A stretch of 37,476 nucleotides of DNA from positions 1 through 37,476 of the forward strand of contig DBJV01000087.1 of assembly GCA_002297185.1 (NCBI GenBank). Direction: 5' to 3'. The notes beneath the pieces are model-generated. The model made no database searches. It was not told the DNA's origin and was given only the letters and a program-made list of their open reading frames with translations. Numbering within the stretch: position 1 is the stretch's first letter; the number at the start of each line of letters is the position of its first letter. Shown piece after piece: positions 8,244 to 26,547 of the stretch. The translations under genes and the position numbers were made by a program. The stretch is from Christensenella sp. UBA767 (lineage in GTDB: Bacteria; Bacillota; Clostridia; Christensenellales; CAG-917).

Positions 8244-8289
8244 GGATAAGGCTCCGCCTTCCGCAATTATTAATTAATAATTATTAATT
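8244..8289 (+). repeat. Mosaic repeat module C, copy 2 (hairpin plus 25-nt AT-only tract)
   Basis: GGATAAGGCTCCGCCTTCC then AATTATTAATTAATAATTATTAATT. Same order and orientation as at 1-58. Confidence 0.85.
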
Positions 8290-8302
8290 CTCAAATATCA
8301 CC

Positions 8303-8332
8303 AAAAAAGACACGCTCTTGCGTGTCTTTTTT
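8303..8332. terminator. Bidirectional intrinsic terminator downstream of rubrerythrin
   Basis: AAAAAAGACACGC-TCTT-GCGTGTCTTTTTT. The stem and flanks are identical to the terminator at 5481-5508; only the loop differs. Confidence 0.8.
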
Positions 8333-10390: not shown

Positions 10391-10430
10391 CATATGGAAT
10401 GATCGTATAAGATTTCCATTCTTCCATATG
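10391..10430. other. Inverted repeat CATATGGAA...(C)TTCCATATG immediately after the stop codon; no T-run
   Basis: 9-10 nt arms with an alternative inner pairing ATGGAA/TTCCAT. The same CATATGGAAT / GGAATATTCC words recur in the other mosaic tracts (22486, 26312). Confidence 0.6.
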
Positions 10431-10492
10431 TCATTCAGAGGGCGCAAAGCGACCGTGGGAATCCAGCGTAGCGAAAAGCGGAATATTCCACA
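10429..10492 (+). repeat. Mosaic module E (TGTCATTC...GGGAATCCAGCGTAGCG...GGAATATTCC)
   Basis: The reverse complement recurs at about 26312-26363. Variant of the TGTCATTGC...GCAATC module. Confidence 0.8.
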
Positions 10493-10494
10493 AC

Positions 10495-10649
10495 TTGCGC
10501 TATGCGCAAATATCACTGTTGCAACGCAACAATATCACTTTTTGCGTAGCAAAAAATATCACTTGTGCGTAGCACAAATATCACTGCGCCTACGGCGCAA
10601 TATCACTCACATAAAGTGCTAAAAAGCACTTTATGCGTTGATAAACGCA
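10495..10649 (+). repeat. Hairpin array 1: five units of [5-6 bp stem / 3-nt loop hairpin + AATATCACT], followed by an 11-bp and a 6-bp hairpin
   Basis: AATATCACT starts at 10509, 10531, 10555, 10577 and 10599 (spacing 22/24/22/22). The hairpins are TTGCGC-TAT-GCGCAA, GTTGC-AAC-GCAAC, TTTTGC-GTA-GCAAAA, TGTGC-GTA-GCACA and GCGCC-TAC-GGCGC, followed by CATAAAGTGCT-AAAA-AGCACTTTATG and TGCGTT-GATA-AACGCA. Confidence 0.85.
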
Positions 10650-10681
10650 TTATAAAGTGCCAATTTGCACAAAATAGCCCT

Positions 10682-11002
10682 ATGAGTTTCTACGACGTCG
10701 TATATGAACAAGTAAAGAAAATCCCAAGCGGAAAAGTTGCAACCTACGGACAAATCGCCGTGTTGTGCGGCTCTCCGCGCGCCTCGCGCGCAGTAGGGTA
10801 TGCACTCCATTTCAATCCCGATCCCGAGCATGTGCCGTGTTTTCGAGTTGTCAACCGTTTTGGCAGATGCGCCCCTGCGTTCGCCTTCGGCGGTCCGGAA
10901 GTGCAAGCCAATCTCCTTCGTGCCGACGGCATCGAGGTTGACAAAGACGGCTACGTCGATTTGGACAAATACCAATGGAATCCGTATAGTTATAAGCAAT
11001 AA
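10682..11002 (+). CDS. MGMT-family DNA-binding domain protein (ATL / YbaZ-like, single domain)
   Basis: 106 aa from the ATG at 10682. KIPSGKVATYGQIA...GSPRASRAVG...VPCFRVVNRFG matches the alkyltransferase helix-turn-helix and active-site loop, but the loop reads PCFR rather than the canonical PCHR. The upstream part of the ORF-track ORF lies in the repeat array. Confidence 0.7.
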   Translation: MSFYDVVYEQVKKIPSGKVATYGQIAVLCGSPRASRAVGYALHFNPDPEHVPCFRVVNRFGRCAPAFAFGGPEVQANLLRADGIEVDKDGYVDLDKYQWNPYSYKQ

Positions 11003-11012
11003 AAATTTCAAT

Positions 11013-11080
11013 CGGGTGTGGGGTGTCCCCACCAACTGTCATTGCGAGCGTAAGCGTGGCAATCTAGGCGACAGCCGCAC
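11013..11080 (+). repeat. Mosaic modules F (GTGGGG-TGT-CCCCAC hairpin) and A (TGTCATTGCGAGCGTAAGCGTGGCAATCTAGGCG...)
   Basis: F recurs inverted at about 26368-26388 with one base pair fewer in both arms. A is a shorter-loop variant of 8003-8038 and 11238-11273. Confidence 0.8.
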
Positions 11081-11081
11081 A

Positions 11082-11160
11082 CACCAAGCAAGCGATATAG
11101 CGAAACTGAGGCAGAAGTTTTTATCCCTCTTATTCTGATAGCGTGTATCGGTTGTGCGGT
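11082..11160 (+). repeat. Mosaic module B, copy 1 (79 nt; candidate structured RNA)
   Basis: 79-nt match to 22621-22699 with 4 substitutions. A long-range pairing closes two internal stems, AAACT/AGTTT and TATC/GATA. Confidence 0.75.
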
Positions 11161-11237
11161 AGCAGAGCAATAAGGCTAGCGTGGCGTTAGACAATGAACT
11201 GGGGAGTTGTCTTTGCCACAGTGACGACTTTTGCTCT

Positions 11238-11285
11238 TGTCATTGCGAGGAACGTAGTGACGTGGCAATCTAGGCGATAGCCGCA
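11238..11285 (+). repeat. Mosaic module A (TGTCATTGCGAGGAACGTAGTGACGTGGCAATCTAG...)
   Basis: The first 36 nt are identical to 8003-8038. Confidence 0.85.
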
Positions 11286-11291
11286 TTACAA

Positions 11292-11412
11292 AAATACCAC
11301 AACTCGCACGAAGTGCGAATATCACTTTTAGCCAAAGGCTAAAAATATCACTTGTGCGTAGCACAAATATCACTGCGCCATTGGCGCAATATCACAAAAG
11401 GCGCAAGCCTTT
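11292..11412 (+). repeat. Hairpin array 2, homologous to array 1
   Basis: AATATCAC(T) starts at 11318, 11344, 11366 and 11388 (spacing 26/22/22), with a degenerate AAATACCAC at 11292. The hairpins are TCGCAC-GAA-GTGCGA, TTTTAGCC-AAA-GGCTAAAA, TTGTGC-GTA-GCACAA (identical to array 1), TGCGCC-ATT-GGCGCA (same stem as array 1, different loop) and AAAGGC-GCAA-GCCTTT. Confidence 0.85.
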
Positions 11413-11420
11413 CACAAAAT

Positions 11421-11450
11421 AAAAAAAGCGCACCATATCGGCGCGCTTTT
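11421..11450 (-). terminator. Intrinsic terminator of the XRE gene at 11449-11661
   Basis: AAAAGCGC...GCGCTTTT 8-bp stem. The plus-strand A7 run becomes a U-run on the minus-strand transcript. Overlaps the stop codon. Confidence 0.6.
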
Positions 11451-11661: not shown

Positions 11662-11828
11662 TTTTCACCAACTATTTTGTGTAATGATATTCTTATTATT
11701 AGGCATTACTTAATCAAAAACTGCAAAATTAGGCACAGCCTAACAAAATGTGACTTGACTTATTGAGAATATATGAATATACTTTTATTAGCATTTATTT
11801 AATGCGTTTGACAAAAAGGGGAAGAAAC

Positions 11829-13061
11829 ATGAAGAAAAAACTTATAATACCATTTATTTTTGTACTTTTGATTTCGGTTATATTGCTGGTTTCATGCGAT
11901 AAATCGCCAGATGACGGACAAACAGGCGTGCAAAAGCCCAGCGGCACGCAAATTTTTTCCGATAGTTTTAGCATAGACAACGACAAATTATATGTGAAAG
12001 TATCCAATGATACCGAAGTTTTTTCATTCAACGATGCCGTTATAGTTGCAGATGATGCCGATTTTATTGTATCAACTGATATTAGAGCATCTCAAATTAT
12101 AGAAAGTAGGACTGTAAATGTTGAAATCGGAGATAATACGTTTTATGTGTTGGTTAAAAACGGAAATTCTCGGAAACTCTATATGGCTGTTATCAGACGT
12201 AAGCCGTTATATACGGTGAAATTTGATACGATGAGTAGTGCTAAAATCGATGACCAAATCGTTGAGGAAGATGCGTTTTCTATAGAGCCTTTTGCAGTCG
12301 AGAAAGAAGGGGCTGTTTTTGTAGGGTGGGATTATGATTTCAGCAAGCCTATAACTAAAGATATAACAGTTGAGGCGATGTGGGAATATATGACATACAA
12401 TATTACGTATATAACAGATGACTATAATTCTACAATCTGGGATATTAGTGATTATAATACAACGTTTCAATTGAATGATGAAAATGCCGTTGCGTTTCCA
12501 ACTCCGAAGGGCGAAGGAGTATTTTGTGGTTGGTATTTAAATGACAAAAATGGGAAATGTGTAGGTAATACTTCGCAAGTTGGGAAGGGCAAAGATATAA
12601 CAGTATATGCCTTGTTTGACAGAGATGCAAAAGGTTCGTTTTTCATGAGTTCCTACGAGAAGGGGGCGGTTATTGGGTGGATACCGGATGAAAACGGTGA
12701 GGTGTCATTCCCGAAAAAATGGTTTGGCGAAGAAATTGTGAGTATTATGCCAGAGAACATCGAAGAAATAAAAGGTACAAAAACAATGCGAATACCTGAA
12801 ACAGTTAAAACCATATTGGAGGGGTTATTTCAATATACCCCTGAAATAGAAACCCTTATAATTGATTCGAAAGAACTTAATTTGGATGATACAAATGCGA
12901 TTAGATACATTATTGTATCATTTTCCCCTATAAAAGTTGTTGAAACCATTTATATTAGAAGTGATGCCAATGTGTATGATATAATAAAAGATATTTATAC
13001 GGCAGTAATATCGGATAAAGATAATTATATAAAATATCAATATATTGATAAAACCAATTGA
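11829..13061 (+). CDS. Lipoprotein with two Listeria-Bacteroides (Flg_new-type) repeats and a C-terminal LRR-like region
   Basis: The ATG at 11829 gives MKKKLIIPFIFVLLISVILLVSC-DK (lipobox LVSC). The repeats are YTVKFD...GAVFVGWDYDFSKPITKDITVEAMW and YNITY...GVFCGWYLND...GKDITVYALF. AT-rich. Confidence 0.75.
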   Translation: MKKKLIIPFIFVLLISVILLVSCDKSPDDGQTGVQKPSGTQIFSDSFSIDNDKLYVKVSNDTEVFSFNDAVIVADDADFIVSTDIRASQIIESRTVNVEIGDNTFYVLVKNGNSRKLYMAVIRRKPLYTVKFDTMSSAKIDDQIVEEDAFSIEPFAVEKEGAVFVGWDYDFSKPITKDITVEAMWEYMTYNITYITDDYNSTIWDISDYNTTFQLNDENAVAFPTPKGEGVFCGWYLNDKNGKCVGNTSQVGKGKDITVYALFDRDAKGSFFMSSYEKGAVIGWIPDENGEVSFPKKWFGEEIVSIMPENIEEIKGTKTMRIPETVKTILEGLFQYTPEIETLIIDSKELNLDDTNAIRYIIVSFSPIKVVETIYIRSDANVYDIIKDIYTAVISDKDNYIKYQYIDKTN

Positions 13062-13079
13062 TTAATAGGAGGAGTAATT

Positions 13080-13550
13080 ATGACAACGCAAGTAAGCAAA
13101 ACATTTTCTTTTCAAAAAAGTGATATCTTTGAAGGCGTAAATTATGTCGATATGATAAATCACGCATTAGGCACGCAATACAAAGGTTGGTTTAAGGCAA
13201 GTGTATTGCTTAAAAATATGGGGCTAAAAGACCATATGGCGTGGTTTGTATTTATCAACGAAGAAACACACGGATACGCCCATTGGGCATGGCAAAATAC
13301 AATCACGAAAGACGGAACGATAACCGAAACTTGTGTAAAGGATACGACTGATAAATTCAAAAACGACACAACTCGATATCCCAAGTACCGTCTTGTATTC
13401 CAAAGAGATCCAGATAATGACGGTAGCGTATATAAATGTAAATTTCTCGGAATATGTGAGCGCATCAGTGTTGACAACGATGAGAAAAGTCGCACGCATA
13501 AGCTAATTAGAGACAGCATTGAATGGAGTGGGAAATATGAGCAAAAATAG
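13080..13550 (+). CDS. Hypothetical protein (156 aa), no family recognised
   Basis: Strong RBS AGGAGG 6 nt upstream of the ATG. Trp-rich (GWFKA, MAWFVF, HWAWQN) with a motif RLVFQRDPDNDGSVYKCKFLGI that is reminiscent of, but not assignable to, PUA/EVE-like folds. Confidence 0.6.
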   Translation: MTTQVSKTFSFQKSDIFEGVNYVDMINHALGTQYKGWFKASVLLKNMGLKDHMAWFVFINEETHGYAHWAWQNTITKDGTITETCVKDTTDKFKNDTTRYPKYRLVFQRDPDNDGSVYKCKFLGICERISVDNDEKSRTHKLIRDSIEWSGKYEQK

Positions 13551-13833
13551 TCATGCATATAGTTTTGACGGAGGGGAGATTTTGTCCAAGATGGGAGCGG
13601 CGTGGTTTGTTTCCTACGCATATTATCAAAATGTAGATAGCAATCATTCTGCGTGGAAAAGAATAAGCACTTATAGAGGTAGAATTAGCACTTATAACAC
13701 ATCTGCCGAATATCACGCATATTGGATTGAAAAAGTATTGGATATGAGTATAAATAAGTTGGCAACGAACCAAATAGGTTTATCCGGGACAGAAGTTAAG
13801 AATATGGCAAAAGCCGTATTGGAAAAAATATAA
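13537..13833 (+). CDS. Hypothetical protein (98 aa), translationally overlapping the previous gene
   Basis: The ATG at 13537 is preceded by GGAGTGGGA and overlaps the upstream stop (13548-13550) by 14 nt. No family recognised. Confidence 0.55.
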   Translation: MSKNSHAYSFDGGEILSKMGAAWFVSYAYYQNVDSNHSAWKRISTYRGRISTYNTSAEYHAYWIEKVLDMSINKLATNQIGLSGTEVKNMAKAVLEKI

Positions 13834-22435: not shown

Positions 22436-22440
22436 ATGGG

Positions 22441-22620
22441 ATAGAAATATTCCGCTTGTCATTGCAAGCGTAGCGAGGGAGGTGCATATGGAATACTCCA
22501 CCAGCGCACAAAGTGTGCTTAACGTCACTCGTAGGCAGGCGGAGCCGTAGAATATAACTCCACGAAGAGTTATTGTGAGCATCCACATTCAATCTTCCTT
22601 ACAAGCACGAAGTGCGCCAC
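22441..22620 (+). repeat. Mosaic repeat tract 4: degenerate TGTCATTGCA module, reverse complement of the C-module hairpin, and GCAC-GAA-GTGC mini-hairpin
   Basis: TGTCATTGCAAGCGTAGCG at 22457. AGGCGGAGCC (about 22536-22545) is the reverse complement of GGCTCCGCCT. CATATGGAAT and GAAATATTCCGC words are shared with the other tracts. Confidence 0.7.
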
Positions 22621-22699
22621 CACCAAGCAAGCGATATAGCGAAACTGTGGCAGGAGTTTTTATCCATCTTATTTTGATAGCGTGTATCGGTTGTGCGGT
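22621..22699 (+). repeat. Mosaic module B, copy 2 (79 nt; candidate structured RNA)
   Basis: Differs from 11082-11160 at 4 positions (A/T, A/G, C/A, C/T), all in predicted loops. Confidence 0.75.
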
Positions 22700-22723
22700 T
22701 AGTGATGTGAAAATCAAGACGAT

Positions 22724-26289: not shown

Positions 26290-26399
26290 ATTTCCATGCT
26301 TAATGAAAAGTGGAATATTCCATATTCGCTACGCTGGATTCCCACGCTACGCTCGGAATGACAAAAGGGTGGGACACCCACACCCGAACAGTATAAGGC
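26290..26399 (-). repeat. Mosaic tract 5: modules E and F in inverted orientation
   Basis: The reverse complement of 26334-26363 reads TGTCATTCCGAGCGTAGCGTGGGAATCCAG. The reverse complement of about 26368-26388 reads CGGGTGTGGGTGTCCCACCC (the F module). GGAATATTCC lies at 26312-26321. Confidence 0.8.
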
Positions 26400-26400
26400 A

Positions 26401-26445
26401 TCGGATATTCCAAAATTATTAATTATTAACTATTAATTATTAATT
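26401..26445 (+). repeat. Mosaic module C, copy 3, with the hairpin precisely missing
   Basis: TCGGATA-TTCCAAAATTATTAATTATTAACTATTAATTATTAATT equals the copy at 1-55 minus AGGCTCCGCC. Lies about 100 nt upstream of the GH3 gene. Confidence 0.8.
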
Positions 26446-26547
26446 CCTTAAAATTCACTATGGACATTTGGGCGGATATCAAATACAATATATTTGATAT
26501 ATCGTTGAAATTGCAGGGCGAGGGGCTTTGCAAGAGGGTTGATAAAA

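Follow-up and report, generated by a model that had tools for sequence, protein, structure and literature searches.

The window analyzed here, a 37,476-nt stretch of DNA from Christensenella sp. UBA767 (contig DBJV01000087.1), contains two arrays of short hairpins separated by the heptamer ATATCAC, which lie on either side of a small alkyltransferase-like (ATL-like) gene. We report that both arrays belong to Gut-1 (RF01706), an orphan small RNA (sRNA) that Rfam has listed since 2010 and that was known only from gut metagenomes, and that Gut-1 is one module of a larger, very abundant repeat system of Oscillospirales, Christensenellales and some Lachnospiraceae. The motif occurs in many copies, its units turn over between strains of one species, its loops are biased toward one strand, and the Rfam model misses the leader, the terminal hairpin and the second arm of the elements. 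We are highly confident that Gut-1 is not a single sRNA gene but a modular intergenic repeat, present in many copies and subject to rapid turnover, and that there is nothing in it specific to the ATL-like gene. For annotation, this means that tens of "sRNA genes" per genome are probably repeats.

The window arrays and their membership in Gut-1

In the window, 20 copies of the heptamer ATATCAC are present where 4.2 are expected, and no shuffled sequence reached this count. Nine of the copies form two runs on the same strand, five at 10510-10606 and four at 11319-11395. The 9-mer AATATCACT is exact at 10509, 10531, 10555, 10577, 10599, 11318, 11344 and 11366, and the ninth word, at 11388, is the variant AATATCACA. 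In both arrays, all segments between words are perfect palindromes of 13-19 nt, with stems of 6-8 bp and 3-nt loops. The original prediction, made from the sequence alone, of two arrays in which a conserved word alternates with perfect mini-palindromes is therefore borne out. The components are listed below by position in the window.

10480-10495, plus strand: leader of array 1, GGAATATTCCACAACT, composed of the 10-nt palindrome GGAATATTCC and ACAACT
10495-10607, plus strand: array 1, five mini-hairpins alternating with five ATATCAC words; hairpins recovered by both DNA and RNA folds
10495-10509: array 1 hairpin 1, 6 bp, loop TAT, preceding the first word
10517-10531: array 1 hairpin 2, 6 bp, loop AAC
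10539-10555: array 1 hairpin 3, 7 bp, loop GTA
10563-10577: array 1 hairpin 4, 6 bp, loop GTA
10585-10599: array 1 hairpin 5, 6 bp, loop TAC
10610-10635, plus strand: terminal hairpin H0 closing array 1, 11 bp, loop AAAA; seen in the sequence and in the fold
11297-11412, plus strand: array 2, leader CCACAACT, five mini-hairpins and four words, with A rather than T after the last word
11304-11318: array 2 hairpin 1, 6 bp, loop GAA, preceding the first word
11326-11344: array 2 hairpin 2, 8 bp, loop AAA
11352-11366: array 2 hairpin 3, 6 bp, loop GTA
11374-11388: array 2 hairpin 4, 6 bp, loop ATT
11397-11412: array 2 hairpin 5, 6 bp, loop GCAA, after the last word
11421-11450: bidirectional intrinsic terminator common to the ATL side (plus) and the helix-turn-helix (HTH) gene (minus); found by the terminator scan on the minus strand at 11450..11424 with 12 pairs, and kept in all strains

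The T on the 3' side of each word pairs with the A on the 5' side of the next, so that the unpaired linker is the 7-mer ATATCAC. Both strands of the arrays, folded as DNA or as RNA, are far better structured than shuffled sequences (z -5 to -7). Successive words are 22, 24, 22 and 22 nt apart in array 1 and 26, 22 and 22 nt apart in array 2, not at the strict 22-nt period first proposed; because the period is no multiple of 3, the arrays are non-coding. The segments 10549-10606 and 11338-11395 are 93% identical. As had been noticed, the unit TGTGC-GTA-GCACA is common to both arrays, and another, GCGCC-TAC/ATT-GGCGC, keeps its stem and changes its loop.

A scan of the window against Rfam returned a single match above threshold, Gut-1, on the minus strand at 10586-10505, within array 1; it covers the full model (positions 1-77) and scores 52.0 bits against a gathering score of 50 (E = 1.3e-07 for the whole window). 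Array 2 is the next-best Gut-1 match (minus strand, 11297-11375; E = 1.1e-06 in a 1.3-kb search). Its score of 42.5 bits is below the threshold of 50 and the match is without the last linker of the model, but array 2 is nonetheless homologous to array 1 by alignment. The structural hallmarks of the family, namely at least three hairpins, covarying stems and GUGAWAU between them, are all present. The habitat agrees as well: the identical locus occurs on metagenome contigs in ENA, some of them Hadza (human), and related arrays are found on contigs titled "human gut metagenome" and in metagenome-assembled genomes (MAGs) from human and ruminant gut.

The description of Gut-1 by Weinberg et al. (2010, Genome Biol 11:R31) drew on 43 metagenome sequences of the human gut and rated the motif a certain RNA by covariation and not cis-regulatory, naming neither an organism nor a function (PMC2864571). 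In the literature searched, the motif is mentioned only in that work, the alignment of which contains rows with more than three units and some rows with a second, inverted run of words. The window arrays share with Gut-1 the short hairpins with covarying stems, the conserved GUGAWAU/ATWTCAC word between them, and the origin in gut bacteria. Rfam, however, models a three-hairpin sRNA on the opposite strand, whereas the arrays described here have one to five words, a leader and a terminal hairpin that lie outside the model, many copies per genome, unit turnover at the strain level, and a loop bias favoring the other strand. The original prediction was thus correct in stating that the layout is neither that of CRISPR nor that of the GTAG-type repetitive extragenic palindromes (REP); it was in error in taking the layout to be a new one.

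A repeat family of gut Clostridia with variable arrays

The genome scan, with one genome per species and three GTGAWATT words as the query, yielded at least 119 loci, of which at least about 78 carry true hairpin arrays; the metagenome scan for the window-type leader, that is, for the single-armed form described below, gave a complete listing of 117 loci. Altogether, the scans showed the same layout at more than 180 loci of gut Clostridia. The arrays are widespread, so that a duplication confined to the window locus, the contrary outcome envisaged at the outset, is not what is seen. Among the matches listed, the hosts of arrays are nearly all gut MAGs of Acutalibacteraceae, Oscillospiraceae, unclassified Clostridia or "Eubacteriales", and Christensenellaceae, with few Lachnospiraceae; the records with arrays include ones titled Butyrivibrio crossotus (L063), Roseburia sp. 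AF12-17LB (L006) and Christensenella sp. UBA7571 (L019). Outside the Firmicutes, hairpin arrays with the word variant ATTTCAC were observed in a MAG of Akkermansia sp. (Verrucomicrobia; positions 2314-3301 of L002, L-numbers denoting the related loci that were fetched). Phage origin was considered and rejected, a true array being present in only one of 120 viral loci. One metagenome assembly contained at least 21 matches on 12 contigs totaling 1.4 Mb, with coverage of 11-17x, and tens of copies per genome are therefore expected.

The elements come in two forms. The window arrays represent the single-armed form, headed by GGAATATTCCACAACT; this leader heads 106 distinct metagenome arrays, which contain four words in 77 cases, five in 6, three in 12 and two in 11. 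The two-armed form, found at most Oscillospirales loci, consists of a long hairpin or terminator, a short arm reading GTGATAT, a center of about 25 nt (AGTTnnGG-GCGAATAnA) and a long arm reading ATATCAC; the Rfam Gut-1 model corresponds to its short arm. In 37 of 41 two-armed elements, the outermost word is joined without a gap to a hairpin of 10-17 bp, often a tRNA or gene terminator. Where the element adjoins a tRNA (at least 13 of 57), this H0 hairpin is flanked by A and T runs on both sides and could therefore also terminate a transcript of ATATCAC sense. The center contains, on the bottom strand, a promoter-like TTGnnn-16/18-TGnTATTnT oriented so as to read into the short arm (39 of 56 elements have its TTG) and, on the top strand, TAnAAT; judging from these sequences, it could be a promoter that drives the short arm, in ATATCAC sense, toward the terminator. 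Long-range pairing between the two arms was dropped as a candidate structure, variants of the short-arm word being uncompensated in the long arm. The locus L032 contains two copies, separated by 2.7 kb, that match at all but 4 of 166 aligned bases; the sequences flanking them are unrelated, and both copies have the same sharp left boundary, at AGTTATATT. Two side observations concern the long arm: in L007, L013, L058 and L006, a co-directional gene for a four-helix-bundle protein, which by eye we take to be of the 23S rRNA intervening-sequence protein type, begins right after it, and in L013 and L058 a near-consensus promoter lies directly 3' of the last word.

Across the related loci, 231 of 360 distinct inter-word segments are perfect palindromes. 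In these 360 units, 89.8% of the positions are paired; shuffling the 3' halves among units of the same length lowers this share to 49.4%. Because pairing holds across hundreds of units and also in orthologous alleles of the window locus, where stems could have lost it and have not, the sequences support selection on hairpin formation rather than on stem sequence, as originally suggested. The stems do not differ completely between units, as had been thought, but fall into about 15 recurrent families (including TCTCGC, TGTTGC, TTGCGC, TTTTGGC, TTTTTGC, TGCGAC and TGCACC), each with many loop variants, and related families differ by single compensated base pairs. Stem position is loosely fixed, with TCGCAC always first and T-rich stems usually second; the 77 four-word arrays nevertheless display 61 different stem orders.

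The loops are strongly asymmetric between the strands. Read on the ATATCAC strand, 162 loops are of the R..A type and 18 of the reverse-complement type T..Y (p = 4e-30); within these classes, GNA outnumbers TNC by 59 to 6 and GNRA outnumbers TYNC by 26 to 0. The GNA-type loops of the original prediction thus hold and, in addition, constitute a strong strand signature. In two-armed elements, the R..A bias is present in both arms, reading outward from the center; the adjacent tRNA terminators, by contrast, have GNRA-type loops in the tRNA sense. The conserved second hairpin of the short arm is a unit with a 3-bp stem, TGCGAAGCA (RNA form UGCGAAGCA), in which a GNA triloop is closed by C-G. The oligonucleotide d(GCGAAGC) is an exceptionally stable DNA mini-hairpin, and C-G-closed GNA triloops and 3-bp units like TGCGAAGCA are hallmarks of such structures.

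Turnover of the arrays is most directly seen at the window locus itself, where the gene between the arrays is as follows.

10682-11002, plus strand: ATL-like gene, 321 bp, 106 aa; MGMT C-terminal domain only, with the motif VPCFRVV

The protein matches PF01035 (E = 3e-26) and TIGR00589 (57.6 bits against a cutoff of 46.4); in the VPCFRVV motif the active-site Cys is kept and Phe replaces His. Canonical ATL proteins are without the active-site Cys, so the 106-aa protein, which has it, is no canonical ATL. Exact-protein look-ups recovered a conserved gene order in many metagenomes: rubrerythrin, Mrp-type ATPase, C_GCAxxG protein, ATL-like protein, HTH protein and PGM. Among strains with PGM proteins 96-100% identical, we found five alleles of the interval from the C_GCAxxG stop codon to the ATL start codon, and three arrangements downstream of the gene (the repeat modules other than the arrays are described in the last section).

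Upstream, L367: 65 nt, with the leader, the first hairpin, one decayed word and the terminal hairpin
Upstream, L248: array 1 with four words
Upstream, L244 and L242: four words, with differing second units; ~160-nt segment upstream
Upstream, window: five words; TGTCATT module upstream
Upstream, L243: 450 nt of other repeat modules; array absent
Downstream, window: hairpin module, two TGTCATT modules, ~160-nt segment and array 2
Downstream, L242, L248 and L367: a single TGTCATT module only
Downstream, L243, L244, L246 and L249: no repeat module

Array 2 is absent from L242-L244, L246, L248, L249 and L367. Pairing is preserved across all alleles, except for one mismatch in L248, and it is whole units that are swapped. 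Even the last residues of the ATL-like protein vary by strain with the presence of an abutting repeat module, the C-terminus being ..NPYLQR in L243, L244, L246 and L249 and ..NPYSYK(Q) elsewhere. The gene itself is present in every strain context, with or without arrays. Because it is constant while arrays and modules come and go, the repeats are fast-evolving modular fillers around a stable gene, not the boundaries of a cassette. Accordingly, of the original claim that direct repeats of TGTCATT module plus array bracket the gene, the first part stands, in that a module lies 5' of each array and module plus array can be aligned between the two copies, whereas the bracketing of a cassette does not: all strains examined have the ATL-like gene.

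Strand, mode of action and competing explanations

We consider it somewhat probable that the elements act as single-stranded hairpin arrays on the ATATCAC strand, that they are co-transcribed here with the ATL-like gene, and that the heptamer is read by a putative factor. We take Gut-1 to be one type of module within an intergenic mosaic repeat that gut Clostridia carry in high copy number, similar in behavior to REP and bacterial interspersed mosaic elements (BIME), and not a locus-specific device. The arrays have a polarity, from a leader ending in AACT, through typically four or five short G+C-rich hairpins with invariant ATATCAC between them, to a longer terminal hairpin or terminator. Selection on the units would favor single-stranded mini-hairpins formed by the ATATCAC strand (here, plus), with the heptamer between them as the constant element for a putative trans-acting factor. 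Arrays gain, lose and exchange whole hairpin-plus-word units, 22-nt-spaced repeats flanking palindromes being prone to slippage and inter-copy conversion, and they are combined with other short modules (TGTCATT, the GGGTGTGGG hairpin, the ~160-nt segment and AATTATT tracts). In the window, both arrays appear to be sense-oriented inside the C_GCAxxG-ATL transcription unit and for this reason are most likely transcribed as the intercistronic leader and the 3' trailer of the ATL message, where stacked hairpins would shield or process the RNA ends. In L367 and L244, the ATL start codon is only 4 nt 3' of the terminal hairpin (in L367 the whole intergenic region is 65 nt), which puts the array within the ATL transcript; array 2 is located between the ATL stop codon and the shared terminator. 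Family membership, copy number, modular turnover and the strand-specific loop bias are directly observed; single-stranded action, a heptamer-reading factor and any effect on the expression of the ATL-like gene are inferred.

As to the strand, the loop bias points to the one opposite to that annotated in Rfam, and the evidence for the plus strand comprises the loop classes, the promoter and terminator geometry of the two-armed elements, and the place of the arrays in the ATL unit. As to the nucleic acid, C-G-closed GNA triloops, the 3-bp unit TGCGAAGCA and an orientation independent of transcription favor a constraint at the DNA level; GNRA loops, the candidate promoter and the clear inclusion of arrays in transcripts at several loci favor RNA. 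Several results weigh against our preferred reading. As RNA, the minus strand extends each stem by pairing of the word halves UAU and GUG (U.G, A-U, U.G) and is 4-9 kcal/mol more stable; these wobble-extended stems are probably the reason for the strand choice in Rfam, and the word-half pairs, being invariant, give no covariation evidence. Counts of G.T and A.C mismatches (17 vs 15 in arrays, 63 vs 37 in control terminators; Fisher p = 0.4, an underpowered comparison) do not separate RNA from DNA or one strand from the other. Arrays located between co-directional genes are sense in 16 cases and antisense in 13, without an orientation bias, and a function confined to sense arrays embedded in mRNA therefore cannot explain the loop bias of the whole family. 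Among window-type arrays, no sigma-70 promoter belonging to the array itself is conserved. The genes neighboring arrays show no enrichment of any family, and no trans-acting factor was found. A search for a transposase partner of the RAYT (REP-associated tyrosine transposase) or IS200 type in 1.8 Mb of fetched loci produced one weak, unlinked match; this tblastn search amounts to a weak negative. The match, a RAYT-like open reading frame (ORF) in L079 (18-470; HUH motif HLH, YIYENP; NF047646 57 bits, below the cutoff of 80), is 7 kb away from the array, and GTAG-type REP-like hairpins are embedded in its 5' coding part.

Much of this evidence could also be read in terms of an enzyme. In that case, the arrays would be substrates of a strand-specific enzyme of single-stranded DNA (HUH/Y1 or other) that recognizes mini-hairpins and cuts or joins at the heptamer, thereby inserting, deleting and shuffling units, seeding arrays next to hairpins such as terminators, and spreading selfishly like REP with RAYT. 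The predominance of C-G-closed GNA triloops (59), including the 3-bp-stem unit, the indifference of array orientation to flanking transcription, the mosaic unit orders, the near-identical copies with a sharp boundary at unrelated sites in L032, and the abutment of the outer word on a pre-existing hairpin in 37 of 41 elements would all be expected of such an enzyme. Yet no candidate enzyme is encoded near the arrays, the sole RAYT-like ORF going with GTAG-type hairpins, and the strand bias relative to replication that characterizes IS200/IS605-type elements is not found: GC skew is positive on the ATATCAC strand in 44 of 78 two-armed and 27 of 61 single-arm loci, so that of the two biases the original prediction had proposed to record, with respect to replication and to transcription, neither is present. 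Filled and empty sites, when compared, show no target-site signature or clean duplication, the junctions being replaced sequence rather than simple insertions, and gain and loss of units can be explained by slippage between 9-nt repeats flanking palindromes. We regard this enzyme as unlikely. The reading implied by Rfam, a discrete sRNA from the minus strand with three or more hairpins, conserved A-U and U.G pairs and short GAW linkers, draws on the strand of the covariance model match, the rating as a certain RNA by covariation (PMC2864571), the more stable, wobble-extended RNA fold, and the position of the short arm of two-armed elements after an upstream gene or tRNA in the minus sense. On the minus strand, however, the motif would begin 0 nt after a strong terminator hairpin (37 of 41), which leaves no room for a promoter and lets little read-through be expected; its loops would be the UNC/UYNC reverse complements of the stable GNA/GNRA loops (18 vs 162); the supporting wobble pairs, as said, do not covary; in the window, such an sRNA would run antisense to the ATL operon; and units vary from one to five between strains, in shuffled order, at tens of copies per genome. 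A discrete minus-strand sRNA thus appears distinctly unlikely to us.

Binding of a replication, partition or regulatory protein to phased sites in double-stranded DNA, that is, iterons, had been suggested by the spacing of two helical turns. The conserved heptamer does recur as a direct repeat, most often every 22 nt, the words overlap the promoter-like element in two-armed relatives, and a ParA-fold gene lies 600 nt upstream in the window. Across loci, however, periods of 16 to 27 nt occur, with a second peak at 25 nt, and only 37% of units are at 21-22 nt, so the sites do not lie on one face of the helix; binding to the duplex explains neither the perfect palindromes that separate the words nor the loops specific to one strand; the arrays show no association with rep or par genes; and the nearby ParA-fold protein is of the Mrp/NBP35 type and is conserved with or without arrays. 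The word fits none of the DnaA box, sigma-54, sigma-H, ECF, IHF and parS consensus sequences. Iterons are, in our view, very improbable. Even more so is a local duplication or a pair of cassette boundaries that mobilizes the ATL-like gene, an idea that rests on the direct orientation of module and array on both sides of the 321-bp gene and on one row of the Gut-1 alignment of Weinberg et al. in which an MGMT-type gene adjoins the motif, an adjacency that looks coincidental. A protein with PC[HF]R is encoded near an array at no other locus (0 of 322 neighboring ORFs), the gene is in place without arrays on either side in L243, L246 and L249 and with a one-word upstream remnant in L367, and the window, with its ordinary metabolic and transport genes, contains no transposase or integrase; the joint presence or absence of gene and sites, together with an integrase, that would mark an integron-like cassette is not observed.

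Returning to the single-stranded arrays that we favor, a further possibility, which we regard as decidedly doubtful, is that the heptamer-flanked mini-hairpins are parts of an undescribed system acting on single-stranded nucleic acid. Such a system could take the form of strand-specific DNA recombination or transposition that moves hairpin "micro-cassettes" of 15-25 nt at ATATCAC sites; or else the arrays could be genome-wide RNA sites, with AUAUCAC between rigid hairpins, for an abundant putative RNA-binding or RNA-cleaving protein of gut Clostridia. If true in either form, the orphan Gut-1 would gain a function, on the strand opposite to the current annotation; if the element is REP-like and nothing more, the biology is ordinary and only the clade is new. 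In any event, the heptamer flanked by stable mini-hairpins offers a handle for finding the putative reading factor in dominant, poorly studied bacteria of the human gut.

Companion modules, known repeats and the surrounding region

The arrays of the window are embedded in a mosaic of other short repeats, which around the ATL-like gene are arranged as follows.

10429-10472, plus strand: TGTCATT module copy 1, alignable with the module before array 2 and with those in L019 and L088
11014-11033, plus strand: GGGTGTGGGGTGTCCCCACC hairpin module, recurring beside TGTCATT modules and array leaders in many loci; reverse copy at ~26369-26388
11037-11079, plus strand: TGTCATT module copy 2, followed by no array; 3' part 96% identical to copy 3
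11080-11237, plus strand: ~160-nt repeated segment, lying between two TGTCATT modules and beginning acacaccaagcaagcgatatagcgaaactg
11238-11285, plus strand: TGTCATT module copy 3, preceding array 2

The TGTCATT module is a structured repeat family of its own; for 29 of its 65 copies in the fetched loci, an array comes next. It is made up, in order, of GTCATT[SM]GAG, an inner hairpin, GTGG[SG]AATC and a GNA mini-hairpin, and the helix ATTNN/NNAAT covaries (ATTGC/GCAAT, ATTCC/GGAAT, ATTGT/ACAAT, ATTCT/AGAAT). Further copies in the window are found at ~26322-26362 (reverse) and, in degenerate form, at 22457-22480. The ~160-nt segment, for which, as for the TGTCATT module, there is no Rfam match, changes position between strains: it has a second, partial copy at 22617-22700, lies upstream of array 1 in L242 and L244, and is present in reverse in L063, a Butyrivibrio crossotus locus. 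The palindrome GGAATATTCC (10480-10489, 26312-26321 and many related loci) recurs at module junctions, both as leader and on both sides of TGTCATT modules, and could be a joining or target site. The hairpin module at 11014-11033 and, in reverse, ~26369-26388 was observed to have the layout GGGTGTGGG(G)TGTCCCACC.

Tracts of (AATTATT)n, with 3.6-4.6 copies, lie at 24-55, 8265-8289 and 26414-26445 and, in other loci, directly upstream of array leaders. Following such a tract, a lone AATATCAC word at 8294-8330 runs into a bidirectional terminator beside the rubrerythrin gene and has the appearance of a minimal array or a collapsed one. At 22480-22570, between the degenerate TGTCATT module and the second ~160-nt copy, lies a decayed stretch that resembles an array (GGAATACTCCACCAGC..., GAATATAACT...). 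The same set of modules thus makes up further mosaics in the window at 24-55, 8265-8330, 22440-22720 and 26310-26450.

Among known repeats, REP and BIME are similar in being high-copy extragenic palindromes at the 3' ends of genes and between convergent genes; here, there are at least 21 copies in one assembly, the 37-kb window has two full arrays plus remnants, and 20 single-arm arrays lie between convergent genes compared with 5 between divergent ones. The mosaics with other short motifs, the strand-asymmetric motif beside a hairpin and the strain-variable copy number are likewise shared. REP hairpins, however, are ~35 nt long, conserved within a species, marked by GTAG, alternating in orientation within BIMEs and tied to RAYT, whereas the hairpins described here are 9-19 nt long, belong to about 15 stem families, are joined by the conserved ATATCAC linker, run in direct orientation within an arm, and have no detected RAYT link. 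GTAG hairpins similar to those of L079 were also seen upstream of the array in L113.

In Neisseria, NIMEs (neisserial intergenic mosaic elements) consist of RS units flanked by dRS3 repeats, ATTCCC-N8-GGGAAT. Like the system described here, they are intergenic mosaics in which several families of short repeats meet at a small junction motif with inverted repeats, the counterparts here being GGAATATTCC and the ATTCC..GGAAT helix of the TGTCATT module; they differ in phylum and in sequence and are not known to have arrays of heptamer plus mini-hairpin. The BOX elements of Streptococcus pneumoniae, boxA-boxB(n)-boxC, have a comparable succession of head module, variable number of internal units and tail and are also intergenic and co-transcribable, but boxB is 45 nt long and conserved in sequence, and no conserved single-stranded linker between variable hairpins is known there. 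CRISPR arrays have repeats of 23-50 nt, unique non-palindromic spacers and cas genes; here, only 7-9 nt are constant, the parts that vary are palindromic and come from a limited set, and cas genes are absent.

Beyond the shared terminator, the block between the HTH and PGM genes (11763-13833) is strain-variable as well. In the window, it encodes a Flg_new-repeat protein, an SRA-domain protein and an 80-aa ORF; in the corresponding loci of L242-L249 and L367, it contains a gene for a SHOCT-domain protein in some strains and, in others, genes for a shorter SRA protein together with an ORF of 139-168 aa.

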